64,000 nt of DNA from an uncultured Acidobacteriota bacterium (GTDB taxonomy: Bacteria > Acidobacteriota > Vicinamibacteria > Vicinamibacterales > SCN-69-37). Positions within the stretch are counted from its first letter, which is position 1; every line of letters starts with the position of its first letter. The notes under the pieces were generated by a model. The model ran no database searches. It was not told the DNA's origin and saw only the letters and a program-made list of their open reading frames with translations. Positions 9,830-50,881 of this stretch are shown here, one piece after another. The stretch is taken from assembly GCA_963738485.1 (NCBI GenBank), contig CAVTWK010000005.1, positions 388,690 through 452,689 of the forward strand. The letters are read 5' to 3'. Position numbers and translations under genes: made by a program.

Positions 9830-10175
9830 ATAAACGGGCTACGGGAAACAGCCTACGGGAGACGGGCTACGGCGGACGGACGACGGGAAACAGCCTACGG
9901 CCTACGGGAGACGGGCTACGTCAGACGGCCTACGGCCTACGGCAGACGGCCTACGGCCTACGGTAGACGGCAGCCCGCGCGACAGCAGACGGGCGACGAA
10001 GCAAGGTACACGCACAGGGGGCCGGCTCGTCGAGCCGGCCCCCTGTCGTTTCCGCTGTTCCGCTGTCGATGGCCGTAGCCTGTAGGCCGTGAGCCGTCGC
10101 CCGTGGCCCGTCTGCCGTAGGCCGTAGGCCGTCTGCCGTAGGCTGTAGCCCGTAGGCGGTCTGCCGTCTCCCGTC
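9830..10175. repeat. inverted pair of heptanucleotide arrays (ACGG-type then CCGT-type) around a GC hairpin
   Basis: 9833-9985 reads ctacggg aaacagc ctacggg agacggg ctacggc... 10066-10175 reads ccgtagc ctgtagg ccgtgag ccgtcgc ccgtggc ccgtctg... The central hairpin is CAGGGGGCCGGCTCG/CGAGCCGGCCCCCTG at 10015-10045. Confidence 0.9.
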
Positions 10176-13374: not shown

Positions 13375-13583
13375 GGCTACGGCAGACAGACGACGGTCTA
13401 CGGGAGACGGTCTACGGCACGGGGCCGACAGCAGACAGGCGACGGCAGAACACGGGAGATGGCTGGCGACTGGCGGCCGCAGGCTGTTGCCGCTGTAGGC
13501 CGTGGGCTGTTGTCGCCCGTTTGCCGTCGCCCGTCCGCCGTAGCCTGTTGGCTGTTTGCTGTTGCCCGTTTGCCGTCTGCCGA
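13375..13583. repeat. inverted pair of heptanucleotide arrays
   Basis: 13375-13470 is ACGG-type (ctacggc agacaga cgacggt ctacggg agacggt ctacggc). 13490-13583 is CCGT-type (ccgctgt aggccgt gggctgt tgtcgcc cgtttgc cgtcgcc...). The pair abuts the M23 stop codon. Confidence 0.85.
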
Positions 13584-16323: not shown

Positions 16324-16420
16324 CGACGGGCTACGGCAGACGGGCTACGGTAGACGGGAGACAGCCCACGGCCTACGGCCGACAGGCCCACGGCCCCCCG
16401 GCCACGATAACGGGGCGACG
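16324..16420. repeat. heptanucleotide array, ACGG-type, about 12 units
   Basis: gacgggc tacggca gacgggc tacggta gacggga gacagcc cacggcc tacggcc gacaggc ccacggc. It fills the gap between the convergent glgC and kinase stop codons. Confidence 0.8.
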
Positions 16421-24435: not shown

Positions 24436-24526
24436 ACAGAGCATACAGCCTACGGGAGACGGTCTACTGCCTGCGGTAGACCGTCTACAGCCTACCGTAG
24501 CCGGTAGCCCGTTGACCGTCTCCCGT
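24436..24526. repeat. short heptamer-family segment with internal hairpin
   Basis: cagcctacgggagacggtctac tgcctgcg gtagaccgtctacagcctaccgtagccggtagcccgttgaccgtctcccgtc. The stem is GAGACGGTCTAC/GTAGACCGTCT. Confidence 0.7.
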
Positions 24527-25027: not shown

Positions 25028-25465
25028 CGGGGACGTCGTGGACTTCTGCGACGCTCCGGGACTGCGGCGTGATTGCCGGGGTCTCCAGCGTCCGTGCAGC
25101 CCGTCGGCACCTCAAGTCTCTTTCACTCCCGCACTTCGGCGTCAATGCCAGCACTTGAGCGACAGTTCCCGCACCTCTGCGCGAACTCCAGCACTTCAGG
25201 CGCGGTCCCGGCCTCCAGCGTCAGTTTCGGGACCTGAGCGTCAGCCTGCACCTCAGCGTCAGGTCCAGCACTTCTGCGTCAGGACCAGCACTTCAGCGCC
25301 GGCCCCGGACTAGGGCGTCAGCCTGCACTTCACCGTCAGGACCAGCACATCAGCCGCGGTCCCGGACTTCAGCGTCAGCCCTGCACTTCACGTGCTTGTC
25401 AGGCCAGCACTTCGCGCGGAGCGCGAAGCACTTCGAGCCCTTTTCACCCAGCACTTCCCGCGTCA
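25028..25465. repeat. array of about 21 units at about 20-bp spacing, core (C)CNG(C/G)AC(T/C)TC(A)GCGTCAG
   Basis: ACTTC-type cores fall at about 25042, 25061, 25109, 25133, 25153, 25173, 25193, 25211, 25232, 25250, 25270, 25290, 25309, 25327, 25347, 25366, 25385, 25409, 25430 and 25454. Confidence 0.8.
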
Positions 25466-25469
25466 GCGC

Positions 25470-28258
25470 CTATTGTGCCGGCCGATAGATCCGCACGTTC
25501 TGAATCTGCAACGGTCCGAGTCCTGCCGCCGCCGCCGTCAGCGTGATGCGCACGAACTTCGCGTTCGTCGGTGAGAACGAAGCCGTCGTGATCGTCGAGA
25601 CCGTGCCTTTCGAGCAGCGGCTGACTCCAGGTCTTGCCGTCCGTGGAGGTCTGCACCTGGAACTCGCGCAGGACCGACGGGCGCGGCGGGTGCCGCCGGT
25701 GGTGCCCCCGCGGCTGGTGCCCCCGCCGCCGGTGGCGCGCCACCACCACGCGCACCGCCCCCGCGACCGCCGCCCGGGGCGTTGAACTGCACCTCCGAGA
25801 TGCGCATCGCCTGCGGCAGTTCGACCTGCACCCACATGCCCGGCACCTGCGGCTCAGCCGACGTCCACCCGATGATCGTCAGCGCCCGGTCGGCCGCCGC
25901 CGTGTTGTGGCTGGCGGACGCCTTCCACGTCTGCTCGATCGGCAACAGCACCGGCAGTGCCGTCGCGATTTCCGGCGCCGTCCACGGCGTCTTGCGATTC
26001 ACGCTCGCGGCCCGCACACGCGCGACGTCCTCCGGGGTGACGAAGGACCCGGTGTTGCCGAAGTCGTTGCGCACGTAGGAGGCGATCGCCGCGACCCAGT
26101 CGTCCTTCTGCGCGCCCATCGGCACCATGACGTTGGTGAACGTCTTGTCGTCGAGCGGCCCGGTCAGGCCGTGCAGCAGCACCTTGATCACATAGTCGCG
26201 ATGGCCCTGCACGCGTGGCGAACCGGCGAGCGACGGACCCATCATCGTGCCCGGCGCCGCGCCGGCCATGGGCGCGCCTCGGCCATCATCGCCATGGCAC
26301 GAGAAGCAGACCTCGCGGTAAATCGTGCCGCCGCGCTGCAACTGGTCCTGCTCGGCAGGGTTGATGCCTGCCGCGCCGCGTCCGCGCGCGCCGGCCGCGA
26401 GCATCAGCTTGCCGATCTCCTGGATCCCGCGCGACTTGTTGGCCTCCATCGTCGCCTGGATGACGGCGGGCGCATCCGCGACCTTCAGCACGTTGATCGT
26501 GAGGATGCCCTGCAGCGCGACGTCCACGTCGCTGTCCTTCGTCGCCGCGCGATAATCGGCGTCGAACGAGCGGTCGCCCTGCTTGTACAGCGTCTCGCTG
26601 GCGCGGATCGCCTGGATGCGCATGCGTGGATTCGGGTCCTTCATGGACGCGCGGACCAGCGCGGCGTCGAGTGCGCCCAGGCCTTCGAGCGTCCACATCG
26701 CGTGGAACCTGGCGAGCAGATTGGTCGATGACGTCGCCATCGTCCGCAGCGCCGGGACGACGGACCTGTCCTGTCGCAAGACGAGCGTGCGCTGCGCGGT
26801 GTCTCGCCACCAGCCGTTGGCGTGGGTGAGGTGCTGCACGAGCTGCGTAGGCGTCTCGCTGTACATCCTCGGCTTCGTCATGTCGAGCGCGATGGCGGGG
26901 AGCGCGGGCTGTCCGGGAATCGGCCGGCTCGCCGCGGGGCCAACCGGGATGCCGGGGAACTCGGGCGTGCCGTCGAAGCGCAGTCGCCAGATGCGGCCGT
27001 GGTGAATGACTTTGTCGAGCTGGTACTGGAAGATCTTGTGGCGCAGATACGAGTTGGCGCGCGTCCACTCGCCTTCCTGGATGATGCCGCGATACATGTC
27101 CGCGATGTAGACGGTGCCATCGGGCGCCGTCTTGATGTTCACCGGCCGGAACAGCGGATCGGAGCTGAGGATGAACTCGGACTTCGGATACACGTTCTTG
27201 AGCTGGGTCAGCCCGTCGGTCTTCACGATGTCCGTGCGCCGGATCAGCCGACCGACCGGCTCGGTGTAGAGCAGGTCGCCGATCAGATCCTCGGGGACGC
27301 GGTGGCCACGCACCATGTCCTGACCGCCGGTCGCGGTTGCGTGATTGACCACGCCTGTCGGGACGCGCACGCGGCTCATGCCGCCCTGCATGTCGCCCAG
27401 GCCGACGATCGGCCAGACGATGTCGAACTCGGGTTCGTATTCGTCGGCGATGCGGTAGGCGCCGTACTGGATCGGCACCTGGAAGTTCAGCGGGCCGCGC
27501 TCGCAGCCCGCGCACGTGAACCACATCTTGCCGTCGTCGTCCTGCGTCAGGCCCCACTGGCCGCCGTTCGAGCCGGTGGCTTCGCGGATGATGCCGGTCG
27601 GCGTCCAGCGGAAGCGGAACGAGTTGTAGGTGCTGTAGATCCAGTTGTCGAGGCCCCAGACGAACCCGCTCTGTTCGTGCTCGAGGTTGCCGTCACGGCC
27701 GATGCCGACGCCGCTGTAGAAGATCTCGCGCTTGTCTGCCACGCCGTCGCCGTTGGTGTCCGTCAGCTTGATCACGTCGTCGGACGCGGTCTCGTTGGTC
27801 AGGATGGAGTTGGCGTCGAGCGGCAGCACCATCCGCGGCAGCACGAGCTTGTCGGCGAAGACGACCTTCTTGTCGAACGTGCCGTCGCCGTTGGTATCTT
27901 CCCAGCGGCTGATGCGGCTTTCCGGCGCGTGCTGGTTGGTGCCCTCGACGTCAGGCATGTAGGTGACGAACTCGCAGATGTACATGCGACCCAGGCCGTC
28001 GAACTCGATGACCGCGGGCGTATCGATGTCCGGGTCGGAGAGGACCAGCTCCATGCGGTAGCCCGGCGGGAGCAGGAACGTCTTCGCCTGCTCGGCAGCG
28101 GTCTTGGCCTTGATCGGATCCTTCGGGCCGAAGTCTGCGCGCGTGGACGGAATCAGCGGGTAGGGCTGCGACTGACCGAGCATCGAGATGCTCGCGACAC
28201 TGACCAGGCCAAGGGCCAGCATCCAGACACGGGGGCGCGACGAGGGGCTGAGGCGCAT
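25470..28258 (-). pseudogene. PVC-type membrane-bound-dehydrogenase-like heme-binding protein with C-terminal discoidin-like domain; 3' end frameshifted
   Basis: Signal/anchor MRLSPSSRPRVWMLALGLV. It has a dehydrogenase-like propeller region, HEAT-like repeats and the cytochrome c motif CFSCHGDDG. The last ~70 codons (SVLREFQVQTSTDGKTWSQPLLE, then GTVSTITTASFSPTNAKFVRITLTAAAAGLGPLQIQNVRIYRPAQ*) sit in two other frames, with joins near 25683 and 25609. Confidence 0.75.
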
Positions 28259-28330: not shown

Positions 28331-29030
28331 AACAGACGGCGGACAGCCTACGGTGGACGGCTCACGGACGACGGCTCACGGGCTACGGCGGACAGGCTAC
28401 CGCCGACGGCCTACGGGCCACGGCTCACAGGCTACGGCAGACAGACGACGGCTCACCAGCTACGGCCTACGGCAAACAGGCTACAGACGACGGACGACGG
28501 ACGACGGGGGACGGCAGACAGAACACGGCTCACCGGCTACGGACGACGGCCAACAGGCTACGGACGACCGCCTACGGCCTACGGCCCACAGATACGGACG
28601 ACGGACCACCGCAGACGGGCTACGGTGGACGATCGCGGCTCACTGGCTACTGCCTACGGCTCACGGGCTACCGCAAACAGGTTACAGACGACGGACGACG
28701 GGAGACCGCAGGCCGGCTCCGGTGGACAGCAAACGGCTCACGGGCGACGGCAGACGGACGACGGCTCACGGGCTACTGCCGACAGAACACGGCAGACAGG
28801 CTACGGACGACGACGGACGACGGGAGACAGCCTACGGCGGACGGCTCACGGGCTACTGCGGACAGCAGACGGCTCACGGGCTACTGCCTCACGGCAAACA
28901 GGCTTCGGACGACGGACGACGGACGAAGGACGACAGGCTACCGGGGACTACGGCAGACGGGCCACGGCGGACGGGCTACGGCCTACGGCACACAGGGTAC
29001 GGACGGGAGACAGACGACCTGCGGTTCACG
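28331..29030. repeat. heptanucleotide array, ACGGNNN orientation, about 100 units
   Basis: It parses in register as acggcgg acagcct acggtgg acggctc acggacg acggctc acgggct acggcgg... with only occasional 1-nt register slips. Confidence 0.9.
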
Positions 29031-29039
29031 GCATAGGTG

Positions 29040-29160
29040 TGGACCTGGACGTCAGCTCCGGGACTTGCGCGAGCGTAGCGAAGCTGCGGGACTTCAGCGT
29101 CAGTTCCGGGACTTCTGCGAAGCCTGAGAAGTGAGGCGAAGCCCCCGGGACTTCTGTCCC
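29040..29160. repeat. GGGACTTC-core repeat cluster (4 units)
   Basis: ctccgggacttgcgcgagc..., gctgcgggacttcagcgtcag, ttccgggacttctgcgaagcc, cccccgggacttctg. It lies directly beside the big heptamer array. Confidence 0.75.
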
Positions 29161-30954
29161 TACACATCCAGCCCGATCGATCGCATGAGCGCCACGGCGT
29201 TGCTCGTCTGCACGACGCCGGGACGAAGGCGGTAATCGAATGTCATCACTCCGTCGCTGAACTGGTCTTCGAGGTGCATGTTCGTCGCCTTCTCGCCGAG
29301 TTGATCTGCGATGGCGCCGAGCGCCAGATCGTGGGTGGTGACGATGCCGACCGCGGCCTTCGCAATGAGGCCGGTGAGGAGCGCGGCAGCACCCTGGCGG
29401 CGATCGTGGGAGTTGGTGCCCGAGAGGATCTCGTCGAGCAGGAACAGCGCGTGCCCATCGTGCGCGTCCACCAGATCGACGATGGCCTTGAGGCGTGTGA
29501 TCTCTGCGTAGAACCGCGACTTGCCATCCGTGAGCGAGTCGTTCACGCGGATGGACGCGCCGATGGCCAGCCGCGTGAGCGTGAACGAGGAGGCCCGCAC
29601 CGGCGCACCCATCTGGGCCAGCACGACATTCAGCCCGAGGGCGCGCATCAGCGTGCTCTTGCCAGACATGTTGGATCCACTCACGACGAGCAGCTGCGGA
29701 TCGGCGCCGCGACCGCCGAGGCTGACGTCATTGGCGACCGCCGACCGCGGCAGCAGGGGATGGGCCATGCCCAGCGCCGCCACGTGGGCGGGGCCGTCAA
29801 CGATCGTCGGATAGACGTGATCCGGATGCTCAGCCGCGAAGGCCCCGAGCGCGAGGAGGGCGTCGAACTCGCCGATGACGTCGAGCCAGCGGGGCACGTC
29901 GGTTGAGAGCCGCGTGCGCCAGGCGTCGATGGCCAGCGCCATCTGCGTGCCCCAGAAGACGATGGCCGCCGGGATGGCCACGATGATGTTGCTGCGCGAG
30001 GCGAGGAGCGCGCCCAACTGGTCGAGTCGTCCGATCTCAGCGGACGCGGGACGATGCGTACGCGCCAGCGCTTCCCGCAGCGCCTGCAGCCGCGGGCTCG
30101 TGAAGTGCTCGTGTTCGACGACGCGCAGCAGCGAGGCGAAGAGATCGAGGTCATGGGCTGCTTCGTCCACCGTGCCGATGATGACGGACACGCGCGGGCG
30201 CAGGAACAGCACCCAGGCGATCTGGATCACGAGCAGCACCGCGACCGATCGCGCGAACCAGACCGGCAGGTCGCCGTAGTACCAGGCCGCGAACGACCGT
30301 GGGGAGCACCACGGCCGACGCGAGCGCCATCGCGACGCGCGGCCACGGACGCGCCAGGATCGGCGGGGCCGCGGCCCAGGTGCGGAGCCGCGCCGCGTCG
30401 ATGCCGGCGCGCGGCAGGCCGTCGCCGGCCACCGCCATCGCTTCGCGCAAGTCGTGTCGCGCGGTGAGCTCGCGAACGGCCGCCTGCCGCTCCAGCAACT
30501 GGGCCGGGTCGGCCGGCGCAAGCAGCCAGCGTGTCAGCGTCTCCTGGCCCGCCTGCGTGCGCGTCGTCGCCAGCAGCTCAAACAGGCTGCCGCGGCCGAA
30601 GAGGTCGAGGTCCTCGGAGTAGAGATGCGCCTCGGGCCGGAAGCGCTCCCCGGGGTCCCCGTGGCCGATCCAGTCGTCGCCGATCCGGCGCAGGCCGCGC
30701 TCGTAATAGGTCGCGGCTGAACGCGCGCGGTCGCGCGCGGCGAGGACCCTGGCATGGTAGACCGCGATGACGATGAACGCCACGGCTGCGGCGAGGGCGA
30801 CCGGCAGGCCGCTCCAGCCTGAGATGAAGAGCGCGGCGCCCGCAAGGCCGACCAGCCCCAGGCGCAGGTACGCGACCTGGCCATGACGCCGATCCCGCTG
30901 GGCCGCCACCTGCCGAAGCTCGGCGAGCCGGGTTTGATATTGGCGCTCAATCAA
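29160..30954 (-). pseudogene. membrane-associated MutS-related protein (MutS domain V ATPase), frameshifted as assembled
   Basis: The C-terminus has Walker A SGSNMSGKSTLMRALG, Walker B LFLLDEILSGTN and TTHDL. The N-terminal half has TM helices (VAYLRLGLVGLAGAALFISGWSGLPVALAAAVAFIVIAVY). The join is near 30293. The start is either TTG 30954 or the upstream ATG 31068 inside a repeat element. Confidence 0.75.
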
Positions 30955-39265: not shown

Positions 39266-39503
39266 CTCCCGTCTCCCGTCGCCATAAGGTCGCCCGTTGG
39301 CGGTTGCTCGTGTAGCCCGTCGCCCGTGGGCTGTGGTCTGACCCTGGTCGTCCGTCGCCCGTTTGCGGTACCCGGCAGCCCGTCGTCCGTCGTCCGTCGT
39401 CGGTCGTGCGTGGGCCGCAGGCCGTCTCCCGTGGGCCGTCTTCCGTAGCCCGTCTGCCGTCTCCCGTCTCCCGTCCGTAACCACCCTCCGTCACCGCCCG
39501 TAG
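39266..39503. repeat. heptanucleotide array, CCGT-type, about 34 units
   Basis: ctcccgt ctcccgt ... gcccgtc gtccgtc gtccgtc gtcggtc gtgcgtg ggccgca ggccgtc tcccgtg ggccgtc ttccgta gcccgtc tgccgtc tcccgtc tcccgtc. Confidence 0.85.
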
Positions 39504-40106: not shown

Positions 40107-40753
40107 GGAACTGATCGGGGCCCTGGCCAGCCATGCGACGCCCGTGCGTGTCGTCGCGCCGTGGGGACGACGGCTGGCGGCCTGGTCACTGCTGGCGATC
40201 GGCCTCGCCGGCACGGCGCTTCTCGTCAAGGGCCCCCGGGCGGATTCTGGCGGCCGCCTCGTCCACTGCGCGCTGGCTCGTCGAACTGGTCGTCACGGCC
40301 GGCGTTGGGTTGGGCGCGGCGGGTGCGGCGCTGACGCTCGCCGTACCTGGCCGCGAGCGCGGCGCGGCGACCCGGTGGCTGCCCGTGGCCGCCCTCGCGC
40401 TCTGGACGGGAATCCTGCTCCAGGCCCTCTTCGCGGCCGGGGGGCCGTGGGCCCAGCTGACCGCCGAACCGGCGTATCTGGCGTGCCTGTTCAAGAGCGT
40501 GCTGGTCGGGGCCGTGCCGGCCATCGCAATGCTCGCGATGGTCCGGCAGGCGGCGCCGATTCGGCTGGGATGGACGGCTGGTCTAGGGGCCCTGGCCGCC
40601 TTTGGCATCGGCGCGGCGGCGGCGCAGGTGCTGTGCCCCATCGATCGGCCGGCCCATCTGATCCTCTGGCACCTCCTGCCCGTGGTGGGCCTGTCCGGGC
40701 TGGCCGCCCTGGGCGCCCGACGGCTCCTCGGTTGGAATCACCCCCGATCATGA
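40096..40753 (+). pseudogene. NrsF-family (DUF1109) membrane anti-sigma factor, frameshifted as assembled
   Basis: N-terminus MRTEELIGALASHATPVR, then six TM-like segments. The frame changes near 40246 (LLVKGPRAD | LAAASSTARWLVELVV...). It overlaps the sigma gene by 11 nt. Confidence 0.75.
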
Positions 40754-40792: not shown

Positions 40793-42433
40793 GTGGCCGA
40801 CCGTCGGCCGCTGCGGGAGACGAGCGATGCGCCCGACCGGCCTGGCGCAACGACCAAAACGACCGCGAGCTGCGCCCGTCGAACGCCAATCGACTCCGTC
40901 ACGGGCAGCCAGGCTCGCTCACTCAGAAAGGTTTCTGTGCCCGCCGACGACCGCCTCCGTATTGCCGTTTTCATTGATTTCGACAACATCGAAATTGGCG
41001 TCAAGAACACGATGAACACCTCCTTCGATGCCGGCCTCGTGCTCGAGGCCCTCAAGGAGCGTGGGGACGTCGTCTCGAAGACCGCCTACAGCGACTGGCA
41101 GCGAGCCGGCGGCTACAGCCGGGCGCTCACGCAGCACGCCATCAAGATGGTGCAGCGCAACCTGACGCCGGGGGGAGACAAGAACGGCGCGGACATCAAC
41201 CTCGCGCTCGACGCCCTGGAGATGGCCTTCACCCACCCCCACATCAACGCCTTCGTCATCGTGGGCGGCGACAGCGACTTCATCAGCCTCCTCGAGAAAC
41301 TCAAGCAGTACGACAAGAAGGTCTTCGTGGTCGGTGGGCGCCAGTTCACCAGCGCGATCATGCAGCGCAACTGCCACGAGTTCATCGCGTACGAGAACCT
41401 GGTCGGCGCCAGTCCGCGGCGCGACGCGGCCGGACCACGGCCCCGCATCGACCGGCTGCCCATCGAGCAGTCGATTCCGCTGGTCACGCGCGGCCTGAAG
41501 GTGCTGGCGGACCGCGAGGTCACGCCGCAGCTCGGCCTCCTCAAGTCCACGCTCATCCAGCTCGACTCCACGTTCTCCGAGCGGACCTACGGGGCCGGAT
41601 CGTTCCGCGACTTCGTCGAGAAGCTCGCCAAGTTCGGCGTCGTCTCCCTGCAGCAGGGCAAGGGGGGCTGGCTGGTGAGCGCCGTCGAGGGCGCGCCGTC
41701 GGTCATCACCGAGACACCGGGCCTCCCGGGCGACCTGTCTGAGAATGTCGGCCTGCCGCCCTTGAATGGCGACGGCGTGTCCGAGGGCTCGGTGCCCTCG
41801 CTGGTGGCGTCTCCGTCCTACGGGTCGCCTGTGGAACAGGCGCCGCCGCGCGCGCAACTGGGCACGACCGAAGACGGCGTTCGCGAGTTCGGTCGCCTGC
41901 TGGCCTCGACCGAGGTCCGGCGCTGGCCCATGTATCTGCGCAACGTCAAGCAGGTGCTGCGACAGGCGGACGCGACGTTCGACGAACGTGCGTACGGCTT
42001 CGGTCACCTCACCGATCTGCTTCGCGCCGCGCAGAAGGACGGCATCGTCCGCCTGGATCGCGACCGGCAGGGCGTCGTCCGCGTCTTCAAGGGCACCGCG
42101 TGGCCGGGTCCGCAGGGCCTCGTGACGCCCGGCGCGCCGGAGCTGGCCGATCGCCCGCTGCCGAGCGACATCGATCCGGACGACATCGGCAACGTCGCCG
42201 TGGCGATGCCCGCATCGGACATCGGCGTGCCGCTGATCGTTCCCGCGGCCATTCTGGATGAGCCGGAAGATGTGTCCCAGCAGCCGCACGAAGATCCGAC
42301 CGCCGTGCGCCTGGGCACCGTCGCGCCCAAGAAGCGCCGGACGCCGGCGCGTGTCCGCGAAGCGGCGGCCCCGGCGGCTCGCGAACCGCGCGCCCGCGCG
42401 CCTCGCGGCCGGGCGCCCCGCAAGCGCGGCTAG
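40793..42433 (+). CDS. NYN-domain (LabA-like) protein with OST-HTH/LOTUS-like repeats
   Basis: NYN core IAVFIDFDNIEIG...GADINLALDALEMAF...FVIVGGDSDFISLLEKLKQYDKKVFVVG. Two later blocks resemble OST-HTH (GAGSFRDFVEKLAKFGVVSL; YGFGHLTDLLRAAQKDGIVRL). The true start is probably GTG 40937, preceded by GAAAGG. Confidence 0.8.
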   Translation: MADRRPLRETSDAPDRPGATTKTTASCARRTPIDSVTGSQARSLRKVSVPADDRLRIAVFIDFDNIEIGVKNTMNTSFDAGLVLEALKERGDVVSKTAYSDWQRAGGYSRALTQHAIKMVQRNLTPGGDKNGADINLALDALEMAFTHPHINAFVIVGGDSDFISLLEKLKQYDKKVFVVGGRQFTSAIMQRNCHEFIAYENLVGASPRRDAAGPRPRIDRLPIEQSIPLVTRGLKVLADREVTPQLGLLKSTLIQLDSTFSERTYGAGSFRDFVEKLAKFGVVSLQQGKGGWLVSAVEGAPSVITETPGLPGDLSENVGLPPLNGDGVSEGSVPSLVASPSYGSPVEQAPPRAQLGTTEDGVREFGRLLASTEVRRWPMYLRNVKQVLRQADATFDERAYGFGHLTDLLRAAQKDGIVRLDRDRQGVVRVFKGTAWPGPQGLVTPGAPELADRPLPSDIDPDDIGNVAVAMPASDIGVPLIVPAAILDEPEDVSQQPHEDPTAVRLGTVAPKKRRTPARVREAAAPAAREPRARAPRGRAPRKRG

Positions 42434-42448: not shown

Positions 42449-43810
42449 ATGATTGAGAGACACGCACGGGGGCCGGCGCCGGTTGGCGCCTTCCCCGTGC
42501 GTGTGGCACGCTCGCGCGTCGTCTCCGCCATTCTCGTCGCCGCCCTCGTCAGCCTCACATCCCGTCCGCACGCCCAGCGCACCACGATCGCGCCAGCCGA
42601 CCTGTCAGGCCAGTGGGAGACCGAGCACGTCTCGGCCCCTGTCTCGGCGTTGTTCGACCACGCCGCCCTGAAACAGATCATCGCTGCCCTGCCGTCCTCC
42701 GGGCCGATTCGTACGACCCAGGTCGGCTCGTCGCTCGAAGGACGCGAGATCTGGGACGTCACCTTCGGCACCGGCGCCACGACCGTGTTGATGTGGTCGC
42801 AGATGCACGGCGACGAGGCCACGGCGACCTCGACGCTCATCGACCTCTACGCCTGGATTGGGCGCCATGCGGCCGAGCCCGCTGTGCGCCAGCTCCTGGC
42901 TGCCCTCACCGTGCACACCGTGCCCATGCTCAATCCGGACGGCGCCGAACGCTGGCAGCGCCGCAACGCCCAGGGGCTCGATCTCAACCGCGACGCCCTG
43001 CTTCTGCAGGGCCCCGAGTCGCAGCTGCTGAAGGGGCTGCGCGATCGCCTGGAGCCGGCCGTCGGCTTCAACCTCCACAACCAGAACTGGCGCACCTCGG
43101 TCGGCGATCCACCGCAGGCCGCGGCGATCTCGCTGCTCTCGGTGGCCGGCGACGAGGCGCGGACGATGACGCCTGGCCGCGTCCTGACGAAGAAGCTGGG
43201 GGCGGTCATCCGCGACGCGCTCGAACCATGGGCGGCCGGGCGGATGGGCCGCTACGACGACAGCTTCGAGGTGCGCGCCTTCGGCGACAACCTCACGAAG
43301 TGGGGCACGCCCGTCCTGCTCATCGAGACAGGGCCCTGGCCGGCCGTCGATCCCGACCCGATGCTCGTGAAGCTCAACTTCATTGCGCTCGTCACGGCCC
43401 TGCAGGCGCTGGCCGACGGCGGGCCCGGCGGTGCGCTCGACCGCGCGGACCCGGCCCGCTACGACTCGCTGCCCGAGAACGACTCGCGCCTGCTGCACAC
43501 GATCATCCGGAACGTGACCATCATCACGCGCGAGGGCGCGGCGCCCTTTGTCGGCGACGTGGGCCTGATCGCGACGCGCCGCGTCCGGACCGACGACGGC
43601 GTGCGGCGGCTGGCGCAGTCGTTCGCGATCGATGACCTCGGCGACCTGCGCACGCTGGGTGCGCTCTTCGAGGTGGACGGCACCGGCCTCCGCCTTGCGC
43701 CTGCGGGCGCCACGCCGTTGCTGCCCAGCCAGCCCGCGGACCTGGTCCTGACGGGCCCCGACGGCACGGTGGTGCGCCGGTTCCAGGCCGAGACGGTCTC
43801 ACGGCCTTAG
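42449..43810 (+). CDS. M14-family zinc carboxypeptidase
   Basis: WSQMHGDEATAT (HxxE zinc motif), VPMLNPDGAERWQRRNAQGLDLNRD, and a signal-like N-terminus. Confidence 0.8.
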   Translation: MIERHARGPAPVGAFPVRVARSRVVSAILVAALVSLTSRPHAQRTTIAPADLSGQWETEHVSAPVSALFDHAALKQIIAALPSSGPIRTTQVGSSLEGREIWDVTFGTGATTVLMWSQMHGDEATATSTLIDLYAWIGRHAAEPAVRQLLAALTVHTVPMLNPDGAERWQRRNAQGLDLNRDALLLQGPESQLLKGLRDRLEPAVGFNLHNQNWRTSVGDPPQAAAISLLSVAGDEARTMTPGRVLTKKLGAVIRDALEPWAAGRMGRYDDSFEVRAFGDNLTKWGTPVLLIETGPWPAVDPDPMLVKLNFIALVTALQALADGGPGGALDRADPARYDSLPENDSRLLHTIIRNVTIITREGAAPFVGDVGLIATRRVRTDDGVRRLAQSFAIDDLGDLRTLGALFEVDGTGLRLAPAGATPLLPSQPADLVLTGPDGTVVRRFQAETVSRP

Positions 43811-44265
43811 CGCCCGGGACCTGGCCGAAAGCACCGGGACTTCGCGCGGAGCCGGGCGGGGCGAGGCGAAGCCTCCGGGACTTGAGCGAGCGAAGCGAGC
43901 AGCCGGAACCTGGGCGAAGCACCGGGACTTCGCGCGAAGCGAAGCGAAGCCTCCGGGACTTCAACGAGCGCAGCGAGCGCCCGGAACCTGGGCGAGAGGC
44001 ACCGGGACTTCCTGCGGAGCCGGGCGAGGTGAGGCGAAGCCTCCGGGACTTCAACGAGCGCAGCGAGCGCCCGGAACCTGGGCGAGAGGCACCGGGACTT
44101 CCGTGCGGAGCCGGGCGAGGTGAGGCGGAGCCTCCGGGACTTCAACGAGCGCAGCGAGCACCCGGGACCTGGGCGAGAGGCGCCGGGACTTCCGTGCGGA
44201 GCGGGTTGGCGAGGCGAAGCCTCCCCGACTTCCGCGGTGCGGGACCGGCTTTCCGGCCTCGGGTT
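43810..44265. repeat. tandem repeat, about 90-bp unit x about 5
   Basis: The unit is GCCCGGAACCTGGGCGAGAG GCACCGGGACTTCCTGCGGAGCCGGGCGAGGTGAGGCGAA GCCTCCGGGACTTCAACGAGCGCAGCGAGC. CCGGRACCTGG anchors fall at about 43813, 43903, 43980, 44070 and 44161. Confidence 0.85.
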
Positions 44266-44425
44266 GATTGCAGCCGGCCAATGGGATACGGTCAGCTGAA
44301 ATTGGCATGAACAGCATGCTCTTTGCAGGTTGAAGAGATCTGTCCACTGTCAGATGGCGTCCCCCCGGGCTGTGCCCGGGGCCGTCACGTACGGACGTCT
44401 GTCGTGGTCGTGTTGGAGGAACCGA

Positions 44426-47400
44426 ATGATCAATGTACGTCGTGTTCGAACCCTGCTCGTGGCGCTGTGCCTCGTCGGGGTGGCCCCGCTGTCGGCGGCG
44501 GCCCAGGTCACTACCGGTACCGTGCTCGGGTACCGTGCTCGATCAGCAGGGCGGCGCCATCCCCGGCGCGACTGTTGTGCTCATCAGCGAATCGCAGAAC
44601 ACCAAGTCCGCGCCCGTGGTGACCAGTGCCACCGGTGACTTCATCTTCCCGAACGTCCGACCCGACGTCTACGCCGTCGAGATCTCGATGTCGTCCTTCA
44701 AGACGCTTCGAACGGTCCGGTGTCTCGGTCAGCCCCGGCACCCGCGCCGCCCTTGGCAGCTTGACGCTCGCCGTCGGCGGCACGACCGAAGTGGTCGATG
44801 TGCGCGGCGAGGCGCCGCTGATCCAGTCCACGACCGGCGAGCGCTCGTTCACGGTCGCGACCGACGCGGTGGCGAACCTGCCCATCGCGAGTCGCAACTT
44901 CACCGAGTTCATCAACCTCGTGCCGGGCGTCATCGAGGGCAACCGGGCCGGCGATTCGGCCTCGACTGGCGGCGGCTCGAACAACTTCATGATGGACGGC
45001 GTCGGCACGATGGAACCGGGCAGCAACCGCCTGATGGTCGTCGCTCAACGTCGAGTCGATCGCGGAAGTGAAGGTGCTGACCTCGAGGCTACCAGGCCGA
45101 GTACGGCCGCTCGAGCGGTCTGCAGGTGACCGCGACCACCAAGAGCGGCACCAACCGCTTCCGCGGCTCGCTCTACGACGTCGAACGCAACTCGGACTGG
45201 AACGCGAACACGCAAGACCAACATCCTCAACGGCGATCCGAAGACGACGAGCAAGCAGCGCGACTGGGGCTTTTCGATCGGCGGACCGGTCGGCAAACCG
45301 GGTGGCAGCAACAAGCTGTTCTTCTTCTTCGCGCAGGAGTTTCAGCCGCGGGCAACCGGCAACAACGTCGTGCGCTACCGCATGCCGACCGCGCTCGAGC
45401 GCGCTGGTGACTTCTCGCAGACGACCGACAACAACGGCAACCCGTGGCCGTACATCCGCGACTACCGCGCGACCGGCACGTGCAGCGCCACGACCCAGAC
45501 GTCCTGCTTCGCGGACGGCGGCGTCCTCGGCCGGATTCCGGCGGATCGGCTCTACGAGACCGGGCTGAACATCCTGAAGCAATACCCGCTCCCGAACCTG
45601 ACGAACGTGCCAGCGGGACAGAATTACAACTTCCAACTGACGCGGCCCACCCAGCGCATCACGGCCTCGAAGCCAGTGCTCAAGCTCGACTACCAGGTGA
45701 ACCAGGCGCTGCGCACCTCGTTCAAGTACGCGTCCTGGTCCCAGCCGAAGGTGGCCGTCCTCGGATCGCTCCCGGGCTTCAACGACACCATCATGAACAG
45801 CCCGGTGGTGCCGCTCTGGTCCCTGTCGGTGAACTACAGCCTCACGCCGACGATGTTCCTCGAGGCCAACATCGGACACACCGAGCACGACCAGGCCGGC
45901 TGCGGTCTGAACGGTGACGGCGCCAGCTTCTGCACGGCCGGTTTCCCCGTCAACAGCGTGGCGAGCCGCGCCAACACCGGGCTGCTCAACCTGCCTTATC
46001 TCTTCCCGAACGCCAACATCATCGACCCGTGCGTACTATCAGTACAAGGCGCTCAACCAGGTGGAATCGGCGCCGTGGGACGGCACGCGCATGCTGTTGC
46101 CGCCCAACTTCGGCTTCGGCGGACGGGTCACCAACGCACCGCCCAACAACAGCTACCCGGGCTTTGCCGACCACTCATCGGTCAACGACTACGCGTTCAA
46201 CATCACGAAGCTGGCCGGCCGCCACACGCTCAAGTTCGGCTACTACCAGCAGCGCGCCATCAAGCAGCAGAACCAGGGCGCGCCGTTCGGCACGCTGAAC
46301 TTCAACAACGACGTCAACAACCCGCTCGACTCGCAGTTCCCGTACGCGAACGCCGCGCTCGGGATCTTCCAGTCGTTCGCGCAGTCGTCGAAGTTCATCG
46401 AAGGCACGTGGATCTACAACAACAACGAGTTCTACATCCAGGACAACTGGAGGGTCACCAGCCGACTGACGTTCGACTACGGCATGCGGTTCGTGCACCA
46501 GCAGCCGCAGTACGACACGACAGGGCAGTCGGCCAACTTCATCGCCGACCGTTGGACGCTCGGCGCCGCGCCGGTGCTCTACGTGCCGGGCTGCGTCGGC
46601 GGTGTCTATCCCTGCTCGGGCAGCAACCGTCAGGCGATGAATCCGGTCACCGGCCAGCTCCTCGGTCCGAACACGACGCTGGCGATGGGCGCGCTGGTGC
46701 CCGGATCGGGCAGCACCACCAATGGCCTGTTCCTCTCAGGACAGGGCATCTCGGAAGACCACGTTCGACTTCCCGGCCCTTGGTTATGCGCCCCGTTTCG
46801 GCGCGGCCTGGGACCTGACCGGCCGGCAGCGCTGGGTCATCCGCGGAGGCGGCGGCCTGTTCTTCGACCGTCCGAGCGGCAACTCGGTGTTCGCCCAGAT
46901 CCTCAACCCGCCGACGCTGCAGAACGTCACCGTCCGCTACGGTGAACTGCAGACGCTCGGCAGCGGTGGGCTCTCGACGACGACGCCCCCGTCGCTCAAC
47001 GTCTACGAGCCCGACGCGGCCCTGCCGTCGTCATTCCAGTGGAACGCCGGATCGCAGATGGCCCTGCCGTGGGGGATTGCGCTCGACGTCTCCTACGTCG
47101 GCCAGCGTGGCTACAACATCGTGCAGCCGGTCAACCTGAACGCGGTGGACTACGGCACCGCGTTCCTGCCGAAGTTCCAGGACCCCACGCTCACGCCCAG
47201 CACGACGCCGGGGGCGACGGCGGTCTCGCAGGACCTGATGCGGGCGATCCGCGGCTACAGCTCGATTACGCAGAACCAGGGCTACCTGACCCGCACGTCG
47301 CACACGCTCCAGGTGTCGTTCCAGCGTCGGCTGCGCAACGGCTTCTCGTTCGGGTTCAACGACGTGATCGGTCTCTACGACCGCCAGAACCTGGCGCCCC

Positions 47401-48129
47401 GCCTGCAGCACGACGCCGACGGGACCTTCTTCACGCGCGACGACCAGGACGAGGCCGAGAAGCTCCTGGGCAACAACAACCCGCGCGCCCACGTGATGAA
47501 GGCCAACTTCATCTGGGACCTCCCGGACCTGCGCAAGGAGGGTGGCGCGATGAAGGCGCTGGGACTGGTGATCAACGACTGGCAGCTCTCCGGCATCTGG
47601 ACGGGCGCGACCGGCTCCGCGTACACGGTGTCGGCGTCCTACCAGAACGGCGGCGGCAACGTGAACCTGACGGGGTCGCCCGACTACGGCGGCCGTGTCT
47701 ATGTGGTCGGTGACCCGGGAGAGGGGTGCAGCAGCGATCCGCTGCGGCAGTTCAACCAGCTCGCGTTCGAGGGGCCGATGGTCGGCAGCGTCGGGCTCGA
47801 GTCCGGGAACGGCTACCTGCGCGGGTGCTTCTCGAGCGTGCTCGACATGTCGATTCAGCGGAACATCCGCCTCGGTGGCGGACGGAACATCCAGCTGCGC
47901 GTGGACATGTTCAACGCGCCGAATCAGGCGCGGATCACCGGCCGGAACACGGCGCGTCAGCTTCCCGAATCCCAACACGAACCGGACCACGCCGCAGAAC
48001 CTGCCGTACGACCTGACCACGGGCGACGTGGTGGTCGCGCGGTCGCTGCCGCGCGGCGCCGGCTTCGGCGTGGCGAATGCGTACCAGAATCCGCGCTCCA
48101 TCCAGATGCAGGTGCGCTTCTCGTTCTGA
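44426..48129 (+). pseudogene. Oar-like TonB-dependent receptor (CarboxypepD_reg + plug + barrel), 8 frame disruptions as assembled
   Basis: RBS GGAGGA plus ATG 44426. Signal MINVRRVRTLLVALCLVGVAPLSAAAQ. N-terminal domain GAIPGATVVLISESQNTKSAPVVTSATGDFIFPNVRPDVY. The C-terminus ...NPRSIQMQVRFSF* is the typical TonB-dependent receptor ending. Coding signal hops frames at 44516-44541, and near 44709, 45041, 45087, 45213, 46030, 46754 and 47951. Confidence 0.8.
44516..44541 (+). repeat. perfect 13-bp tandem duplication inside the TonB receptor gene
   Basis: ggtaccgtgctcg ggtaccgtgctcg. Removing one copy restores ...QVTTGTVLDQQGGAIPGATVV... Confidence 0.9.
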
Positions 48130-49375: not shown

Positions 49376-49525
49376 TTTCGTCGATCCCCGGCGCTGCTGT
49401 CAGCCGGCTGATGCATCGACGTGGCGCGAAGGGGCCATGCCTGTGACGAATGCATGGCGGGCGAGGGCGGAGAGCCCCCACAACGCGGGTCATTTCGGAT
49501 ATCGTTGTGCCAGAAACGTCGAGCC

Positions 49526-50877
49526 GTGACGCATCCGCCCTCCACCGATCACCTCATCCGGGACGTCGTGACTTCCGCCGATCAACGGCGCCGGTCTCGC
49601 GAGGCCGTGCGTCTGGTCGCCCGGCTCGCGCCGTTCGCGGCCGGGCTCGCGCTCGTGGTGGCCCTCGTCGCGCGGCTGGCCGGCTGGCGGCCCGCCGTCG
49701 CGCTGCTCGTGCTCGGCGTCTCCGGCGTGGCGCTCCTGACGGTCATCCTGATCGCCCGGCGCGCCCGTGCGGCCACCGATGCCATGGCGCGGCGCGTCGA
49801 TGCCGACGCGGGGCTCGCCGGTGAACTGCACAGCGCGCACTGGTTCGAAGCGCGTGAAGGGGCCACGGCAGACGCGTGGACCGCCTACCACCTCGGGGAG
49901 GCGACCAGGCGCGCCGAGGCCGTCGCCTGGGATCGCCTCTATCCACCTGTCGCGGCGCAACGCGCGTGGGTCACGAGCGGGGCGCTGGCTGCGGCCGTGA
50001 TTGCCGTCTCGATCGTTCTGCCCGGTCGTTCTGCCCGGGCCGTGACGCCGACCGACCAGTTGGCCGCGACCGTCCAGGCGGTGCTGCCCACGCTCTCGCC
50101 TGAGATGCAGCGCCAGCTCATGGCCCTGATGGGCGATCTCCAGAGCGGCAAGCTCACACCGGAGGAACTCGCGGCGGCCCTCGAGGGGATGAAGAAGCTC
50201 GACCCGCTCGACCCGGCGCTCCAGAAGGCGCTCGCCGAGCTGGCCAAGGCGGCCAAGGAAGCCCCGAAGGACCAGGCGAGAAACGCGCTGGATCCAAAGG
50301 ACCTCAAGAAGGATCTGAAGAAGGACGCGCCGAAGGACGATGGCAGCGCGGAAGATTCGCGGTGGGCCGAGGAAGAGCAGGCGTCGAAGTCCGCCAACGC
50401 GGCGGCGAACAAGTCCGACGCCCAGGAGAAGAGCGGCGACGGCCAGGAGAAGTCCAAGGACGCGGGCGATGAAGCCGCGTCGGCCTCGACGTCGATGTCG
50501 ATGCAGATGGTCCGCGAGTCGGCCAGCCAGGCCGATGCCAGCCAGGCCATGATGATGGACGGCGGCGGTGGGGCCAGCGGCGACAGCACGCCGGGCGCCG
50601 GCGGCAATACCGGCGACAAGCCGAACCAGGCGCTGGCAGCGCTGCTGGCGCAGGCGCTGAAGAAGGAAACCGTCGAGGCGGCCGCGGACAACGCGGGCGA
50701 GAACATCGACAAGGAAGACATTCGCCGCAAGACCGAGGCGGGCCGGTCGGCCATGGGCTACAGCAAGGCCGCCGCCGCCGCGTTCGACAAGAGCCGCGCC
50801 GCGGCCCCACCCGCGGTGCCCGAAGCCCGTCGCCCGCTCGTGCAGAGCTACTTTGTCAGGAAGCCCGGAGACCGTCA

Positions 50878-50881
<4 letters not shown>
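49526..50881 (+). CDS. membrane protein with Lys/Asp/Ala-rich low-complexity C-terminal half (first gene of MoxR cluster)
   Basis: There are two clear TM helices (FAAGLALVVALVARLAGW, VALLVLGVSGVALLTVILIA) and a third hydrophobic stretch (GALAAAVIAVSIVLPG). These are followed by KDLKKDLKKDAPKDD...-type sequence. Its stop overlaps the MoxR start (TTGA). The start is uncertain (GTG 49526 or ORF-track 49421). Confidence 0.6.

Follow-up and report, generated by a model that had tools for sequence, protein, structure and literature searches.

Minisatellites of the mycobacterial interspersed repetitive unit–variable number of tandem repeats (MIRU-VNTR) type have units that range from tens of base pairs to about 100 bp and are prone to copy-number change, and the heptads found upstream of the cholera toxin genes form a binding array whose copy number tunes output. 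MIRUs are mostly intergenic minisatellites and are thought to be transcribed within operons (PMC3635867). Subirana and Messeguer (2019) described dispersed families of non-coding satellites in Leptospira interrogans (PMC6749651); repeats of this kind were rare among 119 reference bacteria, in which medians lay at 0–3 satellites per Mb and dispersed non-coding families were nearly absent (PMC6749651). Here, we analyzed a 64,000-nucleotide (64-kb) stretch of an uncultured Acidobacteriota soil bacterium (Vicinamibacterales, SCN-69-37; contig CAVTWK010000005.1), which we refer to as the window, and characterized a tandem array at positions 43811–44262 on its plus strand. We hold with moderate confidence that this array is a lineage-specific non-coding minisatellite, a slippage or unequal-recombination product of a dispersed composite unit that is tolerated up to the coding boundaries.

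The array consists of five head-to-tail units of about 90 bp each and fills the gap between the gene for an M14 peptidase and that for an outer-membrane receptor, the latter frameshifted. Tandem Repeats Finder (TRF), the check proposed with the original prediction of about five 90-bp tandem copies, confirmed the array and reported positions 43944–44232 with a period of 91, 3.2 copies, 93% matches and a score of 494. The anchor CCGGRACCTGG occurs exactly five times in the window, always in the array (43814, 43903, 43981, 44071 and 44162), compared with 0.18 occurrences expected by chance, and none of 100 shuffles reached five. In each unit, the anchor is followed by two copies of the core CCGGGACTTC, a decamer with 10 exact occurrences in the window, 8 of which lie inside the array within 400 nt. 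The predicted count of two cores per unit stands once two variants are included, namely the single CCGGGACTTG and the last core of the array, CCCCGACTTC, which deviates at two positions. We also recovered the three predicted sub-motifs: A (the anchor, 19–21 nt, about 20), B (a core and a purine-rich linker, 31–42 nt, typically about 41) and C (a core and a linker, 28 nt). Altogether, the array carries 15 same-strand cores at spacings of 19–21, 31–42 and 28 nt, and purines predominate on its plus strand (A 79, T 42, G 186, C 145).

Split at the anchors, the units are unequal in length, and the differences stem from insertions and deletions (indels) in the linkers, including a (GCGAA)n run in unit 2. 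We built an nhmmer profile from the five units and searched it against the window. Unit 1 (43811–43899, 89 bp; E 2.7e-21) carries the anchor CCGGGACCTGG, one core CCGGGACTTC and the variant CCGGGACTTG, and unit 2 (43900–43977, 78 bp) has a B sub-motif, shorter by about 10 nt, in which a (GCGAA)3.4 microsatellite occupies 43934–43950. Unit 3 (43978–44067, 90 bp) was the top match to the profile (E 1.6e-25). A single substitution and a 1-nt indel separate unit 4 (44068–44158, 91 bp) from unit 3, so that the two agree at 89 of 91 positions; the remaining unit pairs are 74–88% identical. This near identity of the central copies, noticed in the original prediction, is consistent with a recent duplication. 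Unit 5 (44159–44262, about 74–100 bp) is degenerate at its 3′ end, where similarity fades into unique sequence after the last core at 44223–44232. With its five units, the array falls within the definition of a minisatellite as at least four head-to-tail copies of a unit of 10–260 nt. It would fail the regularity filter of the SATFIND survey, by which at least 60% of repeats must be identical in length, because its units are irregular; that rule is a filter of one survey and not a biological definition (PMC6749651). The layout is not that of a CRISPR array, with identical 23–50-nt repeats and unique spacers, as the whole 90-bp unit repeats here, linkers included.

Outside the array, the profile detected a sister copy of about 1.7 units, 14.7 kb away at 29041–29155 on the plus strand (hits at 29088–29155, E 5e-8, and 29041–29099, E 4e-4), a locus that the original prediction had not cited. 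This copy keeps the order of anchor, core and core and a recognizable B linker. Its end is 5 nt away from the stop codon of a gene on the minus strand (29160–30521), and the copy is thus antisense to both neighboring genes. The same unit is therefore present at two loci in 64 kb, the window being the span of this genome searched at unit level. The original prediction had derived the unit from a family of roughly 20-bp repeats at 25028–25465, which we delimited as a plus-strand array with a 20-bp period (CCAGCACTTCAGCGTCAGG) at 25112–25470 and higher-order periods of 57 and 77 bp. That link holds for short words and fails for the unit as a whole: the two arrays have 19 same-strand 8-mers in common (random window segments: mean 4.0, maximum 15; 0 of 946 controls reach 19), whereas the unit profile does not detect the 20-bp array (E 2.7). 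What they have in common is the xACTTC core and not the whole unit. The 20-bp array and the 29-kb copy also have the 13-mer ACTTCAGCGTCAG in common. Judged by sequence, the three loci are best described as a loose ACTTC-core repeat family, all in plus orientation, in which the target array and the 29-kb copy are close sisters. Separately, the 20-bp array holds a perfect hairpin with an 8-bp stem (CTTCGCGC-GGA-GCGCGAAG) at 25410–25428.

Compared with the described systems, the array resembles the MIRU-VNTR loci of Mycobacterium tuberculosis in having tandem units of similar size, in a high-GC genome and, for the target array, between co-oriented genes; MIRUs occupy several intergenic loci, and the unit here is present at two loci in 64 kb. 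Unlike MIRUs, which lie in sense orientation in operons and have small open reading frames (ORFs) overlapping gene ends, the repeat has an antisense sister copy, no small ORFs bridge the genes that neighbor the target array, and no sequence relationship is shown. The satellites of Leptospira interrogans are likewise non-coding, with repeats longer than 30 nt that are not a multiple of 3 and more than one intergenic site per genome, but they belong to a different phylum and have a different sequence, and here there are only two unit-level loci, within 64 kb, with irregular unit lengths. Repetitive extragenic palindromic sequences and bacterial interspersed mosaic elements (REP/BIME), miniature inverted-repeat transposable elements (MITEs) and BOX elements are also short, GC-rich and intergenic only; the unit is modular in the manner of the A-B-C modules of BOX, and relatives bear a hairpin version of the core. 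Unlike these elements, the target array has no palindrome, terminal inverted repeat or stable hairpin, and there is no transposase among the flanking ORFs scanned with Pfam. Finally, arrays upstream of promoters, such as the TTTTGAT heptads of ctxAB, and plasmid iterons also place many same-strand cores directly upstream of a gene, and the spacing of about 21 nt recurs in part of the target array. The target differs in its mixed, uneven spacing, in the presence of the same repeat at a non-promoter site, and in its surroundings: the immediate neighbors are the M14 peptidase and receptor genes, with no cognate binding protein, replication or partition gene nearby. The array is akin to MIRUs and Leptospira satellites in general nature, and neither sequence nor context gives it membership in anything narrower than the non-coding tandem repeats.

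Neither coding nor folding signals were present in the array. Its unit lengths of 89, 78, 90 and 91 bp are not uniformly multiples of three and no reading frame is kept; GC content by codon position is flat (0.69–0.76), compared with about 0.7/0.5/0.88 in real genes of the window. Whole-array RNA folds gave z scores of +0.35 and +0.15, indicating no excess of secondary structure, and we found no inverted repeats and no canonical G-quadruplex motif in the array. Rfam gave no match at the gathering score over the window, nor at E ≤ 1 over 43700–44500, and a tRNA search found none. A search of 43600–44600 gave neither a sigma-70-like promoter nor a T-run terminator, and by eye the units show no sigma-54 or extracytoplasmic function (ECF)-type promoter with correct spacing. 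The best sigma-70-like candidate, TTGATT-17-TACGGT at 44263, matches at 7 of 12 positions, was not reported by the promoter scanner, and was rejected. When we aligned the region upstream of the receptor with that of its ortholog, there was no convincing conservation. Relatives have no gene order in common around the M14 gene, and so offer no equivalent intergenic region to compare for regulation.

Turning to other genomes, we found no copy of the 90-bp unit in any of 190 fetched loci with the unit profile, and blastn of the unit against plasmids and phages gave no match. The nearest M14 homologues (64–69% identical) lie in different gene neighborhoods, where tandem repeats are nearly absent. 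The loci of M14 and receptor homologues (L117, L118, L191 and L192) have neither a common gene order nor such an array, and the closest receptor homologues are without a peptidase neighbor and without an array. Metagenome and viral scans for the anchor-core junction returned 72 single matches; none resembled the unit under the profile, and we discarded them as chance hits. A scan of genome collections for two CCGGGACTTC cores within 45 nt returned at least 116 loci, most of them unrelated high-GC DNA. Among the matches listed, metagenome-assembled genomes (MAGs) of Vicinamibacterales and other Acidobacteria carry tandem, intergenic 27–39-bp units that contain GCCGGGACTTCAGTCCCGGC, a hairpin-type sequence with the same core as the target (L016:2848–2905, L040:7223–7301, L049:2818–2894 and L100:1757–1858). 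The same CCGGGACTTC core was also seen, among the matches listed, in intergenic arrays of mostly 21-bp period from unrelated phyla, including Thermoanaerobaculaceae (15 copies), Hymenobacteraceae, Chthoniobacterales and others (L101:866–1186, L053:7632–7851, L035:17–152, L006:2549–2588 and L067:16–40). Since these arrays were found by a search for that motif, run without a control motif, their spread over phyla may be ascertainment only.

The reading we favor, a non-coding, unstructured minisatellite from a family of repeats confined to this genome, would proceed as follows. The starting element would be the composite unit of about 90 bp (anchor; core and purine-rich linker; second core and linker), from which slipped-strand mispairing or unequal recombination would have built the head-to-tail array. 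Units 3 and 4 would come from the newest duplication, and the outer units would have decayed. The purine-rich linkers, of GCGAA and GCGAG types, are themselves slippage-prone simple sequence, and this explains why the units are unequal in length. A sequence-specific function of the array is improbable, and any effect would be passive, in that it stretches the intergenic gap. As no terminator was found, the peptidase transcript probably runs on through the array, which would form part of its 3′ untranslated region. Both window arrays reach a stop codon, the target starting 1 nt after one, as expected if only coding sequence limits their spread. Three observations weigh against this reading. The array sits directly upstream of the expected receptor promoter site, which allows a regulatory role. 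Cores vary less than linkers: with gaps counted, 2 of 30 core columns are variable compared with 25 of 62 linker columns (p = 6e-4), which could mean constraint on the cores. The 10-nt core recurs in the intergenic tandem repeats of other Vicinamibacterales MAGs among the matches listed, which hints at more than drift. When only ungapped columns are counted, the core-linker contrast becomes 2 of 30 against 12 of 48 (p = 0.07), and it may reflect mutation bias rather than selection because the linkers are simple, purine-rich and slippage-prone, with the (GCGAA)3.4 run among them.

Upstream of the array lies the M14 zinc carboxypeptidase gene (42449–43810, plus strand; Pfam E 6e-14), and the array begins one base past its TAG stop. 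The C-terminus of the protein is intact and aligns with homologues to the end. Farther upstream are genes for an NrsF-type anti-sigma factor (40133–40753) and a protein with NYN and OST-HTH/LOTUS domains (40793–42433); we found no link between these two genes and the array. Pfam matches among the scanned flanking ORFs were confined to NrsF, NYN/OST-HTH, the M14 peptidase and fragments of the receptor. Downstream, a unique plus-strand spacer (44263–44425; GC about 62–64%, lower than the array) precedes the receptor, with GGAGG at 44415–44419 ahead of the ATG at 44426. The array is thus upstream of the receptor gene as predicted, and the predicted distance of about 160 nt is borne out if measured from 44265 (161 nt); from the TRF end, which is also the end of the last recognizable core (44232), it is 193 nt. 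The M14 and receptor genes are separated by 615 bp; for the single related receptor that we examined (L191), the upstream gap is about 140 bp. The spacer is the only place left for a promoter of the receptor gene. In addition, a perfect GC stem of 8 bp and a loop of 3 nt (CCCCGGGC-TGT-GCCCGGGG) occur at 44363–44381, in the presumed receptor leader and 45 nt before the ATG.

The receptor gene itself (44426–48129, plus strand; TonB-type, with CarboxypepD_reg and OMP_b-brl_4) is broken, as had been noted: eight changes of frame, every one of them +1, interrupt it near 44529, 44705, 45040, 45086, 45212, 46035, 46760 and 47957. Its GC content (0.62–0.67) is below that of the region just upstream (0.67–0.81). 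What looks like a 13-bp duplication at 44516–44541 is a natural repeat of 12 nt (GTVL-GTVL in translation) with a single additional G; the corresponding residues of the ortholog are GTMVGTVV. An exact 13-bp tandem duplication (TCGTTCTGCCCGG twice) does occur at 50013–50038, inside a long ORF (49421–50881) that has no Pfam match, and one frame passes through it without a stop. The other long ORFs of the window (1152, 1035, 930, 863 and 809 aa) are uninterrupted, and the breaks are thus concentrated in the receptor gene. The closest receptor ortholog on a long contig (L191:6478–10166, 74% identity), which comes from another European Nucleotide Archive (ENA) long-read assembly, is split across three frames, and MacB/FtsX genes near it are also called as short fragments, which suggests that frameshift errors are frequent in that assembly series. 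The receptor is either a true pseudogene or a stretch of locally poor consensus: all eight shifts go the same way, and the L191 ortholog is split too. Whichever is the cause, a fine-tuned regulatory role of the array is hard to argue from this sequence.

The original prediction placed the array where a promoter or regulatory region is expected, and it is this position only that makes a regulatory role possible; none of our promoter, terminator, Rfam or folding tests supported one, the supposed target is split over eight frame changes, and the sister copy is antisense to its neighbors. The most explicit form of such a role, in which the 15 same-strand CCGGGACTTC-like cores bind a regulator or nucleoid protein that sets the activity of the receptor promoter, with copy number tuning output, seems to us unlikely. 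It would account for a location immediately upstream of the only stretch able to hold a receptor promoter, for the lower variation of the cores, for spacings of 20–21 and 41–42 nt that are close to two and four helical turns, and for the recurrence of the core in the listed intergenic repeats of relatives. Set against these, the 28-nt spacing disrupts the helical phasing, the 29-kb sister array lies at a gene 3′ end rather than upstream of a promoter, the Pfam-matched flanking ORFs include no regulator gene linked to the array, the gene to be regulated is broken, and the contrast between cores and linkers weakens without the indel columns. We give a similarly low weight to a second possibility, that the repeat is a decayed hairpin of gene 3′ ends which lost its right arm and whose remnant was amplified, with a residual role in stability or termination of the peptidase mRNA. 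In related Vicinamibacterales the core supplies the left arm and the loop of a strong GC hairpin that is present in tandem, intergenic copies; for the full form GCCGGGACTTCAGTCCCGGC, an end unit of L049 type, the folding energy is −21.8 kcal/mol (z −5.3), another unit from these relatives reaches −14.6 kcal/mol, and the L040 and L100 variants are weaker (z about −2). Consistent with this, the last core of the 29-kb copy still forms a GGGAC-TTCT-GTCCC hairpin beside the stop codon (z −2.5), both window arrays adjoin a gene 3′ end, the L016 array follows a stop codon by about 40 nt, and the anchor can form a 7-bp stem (CGCCCGG-AAC-CTGGGCG). In the target, however, neither the B and C cores (z +0.36 and +1.5) nor the whole array folds, the anchor stem is broken without compensation in units 1, 2 and 5, there is no T-run terminator, and the homology to the repeats of relatives extends over 10–12 nt only and was found by searching that very motif, a strong ascertainment bias. 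These comparisons suggest, without proving it, a descent of the direct-repeat cores from a hairpin element located at the 3′ ends of genes.

Some of the same evidence could be taken further, in that CCGGGACTTC might be a recognition sequence across Vicinamibacterales, held in hairpin arms in relatives and in direct arrays here. The long intergenic regions of this genome would then be taken up by non-palindromic, non-coding satellites that spread by themselves, and the arrays would serve as binding platforms or as substrates of a copying mechanism; we regard this broader proposal as improbable as well. Less likely again is that the repeat is real but that its copy number and small indels are unreliable through poor consensus. 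The same-direction frame changes of the adjacent receptor, the split ortholog in another long-read assembly and the 1-nt indel between units 3 and 4 would fit such an error, but the unbroken long ORFs elsewhere in the window, the many substitutions that distinguish the units in a consistent pattern, and the sister copy elsewhere in the window do not. Least likely of all, and very improbable in our judgment, is that the array encodes a repeat protein or a GGA-rich small RNA that titrates an RNA-binding protein in the manner of CsrB, a GGA-rich small RNA that sequesters such a protein. ORFs of 98–176 aa do overlap the array, and it contains 20 GGA triplets compared with 13.4 ± 2.9 in shuffles. 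That excess amounts to only about 2 standard deviations, comes without supporting structure, and led us to reject the idea of an RNA sponge; none of the four overlapping ORFs rose above noise in Pfam, the array is not flanked by a promoter or terminator, and the lack of a kept frame, the flat GC profile over codon positions, the empty Rfam search and the absence of excess folding reported above all speak against a coding or RNA element.

The window is rich in repeats beyond this family. By a rough decamer rule there are five array regions in 64 kb, other intergenic arrays are plentiful, and most of the long intergenic regions are filled by heptamer-based, 20-bp or 90-bp tandem arrays. The heptamer arrays have a strict 7-nt period of ACGGNNN type and lie in long intergenic regions (28336–29030, 9839–10175, 13512–13582, 16325–16403, 24444–24505 and 39380–39475), with a lag-7 autocorrelation of 0.55–0.58 in the three tested (28 kb, 9.8 kb and 39 kb). 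The largest, of about 700 bp, leads straight into the CCGGGACTTC copy at 29041, and the array at 9839–10175 consists of two halves in opposite orientation. We considered a heptamer origin of the target unit, as 21 + 42 + 28 = 91 = 13 × 7, and rejected it: the lag-7 autocorrelation of the target is 0.30, equal to the baseline, and it has no 8-mer in common with the 28-kb heptamer array. Lacking a 7-nt periodicity, the target array is unrelated to the heptamer arrays of the window.

Taken alone, the array is one more lineage-specific bacterial minisatellite, of use at most as a marker for strain typing and as a warning of an inflated intergenic region. Were CCGGGACTTC a recognition sequence common to Vicinamibacterales, this organism would join the very small number of bacteria in which non-coding satellites are dispersed. 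The abundance of repeats across the window is more notable than the array itself, and should the full genome have the same density of arrays, the organism would lend itself well to the question of how bacteria acquire and keep such repeats.

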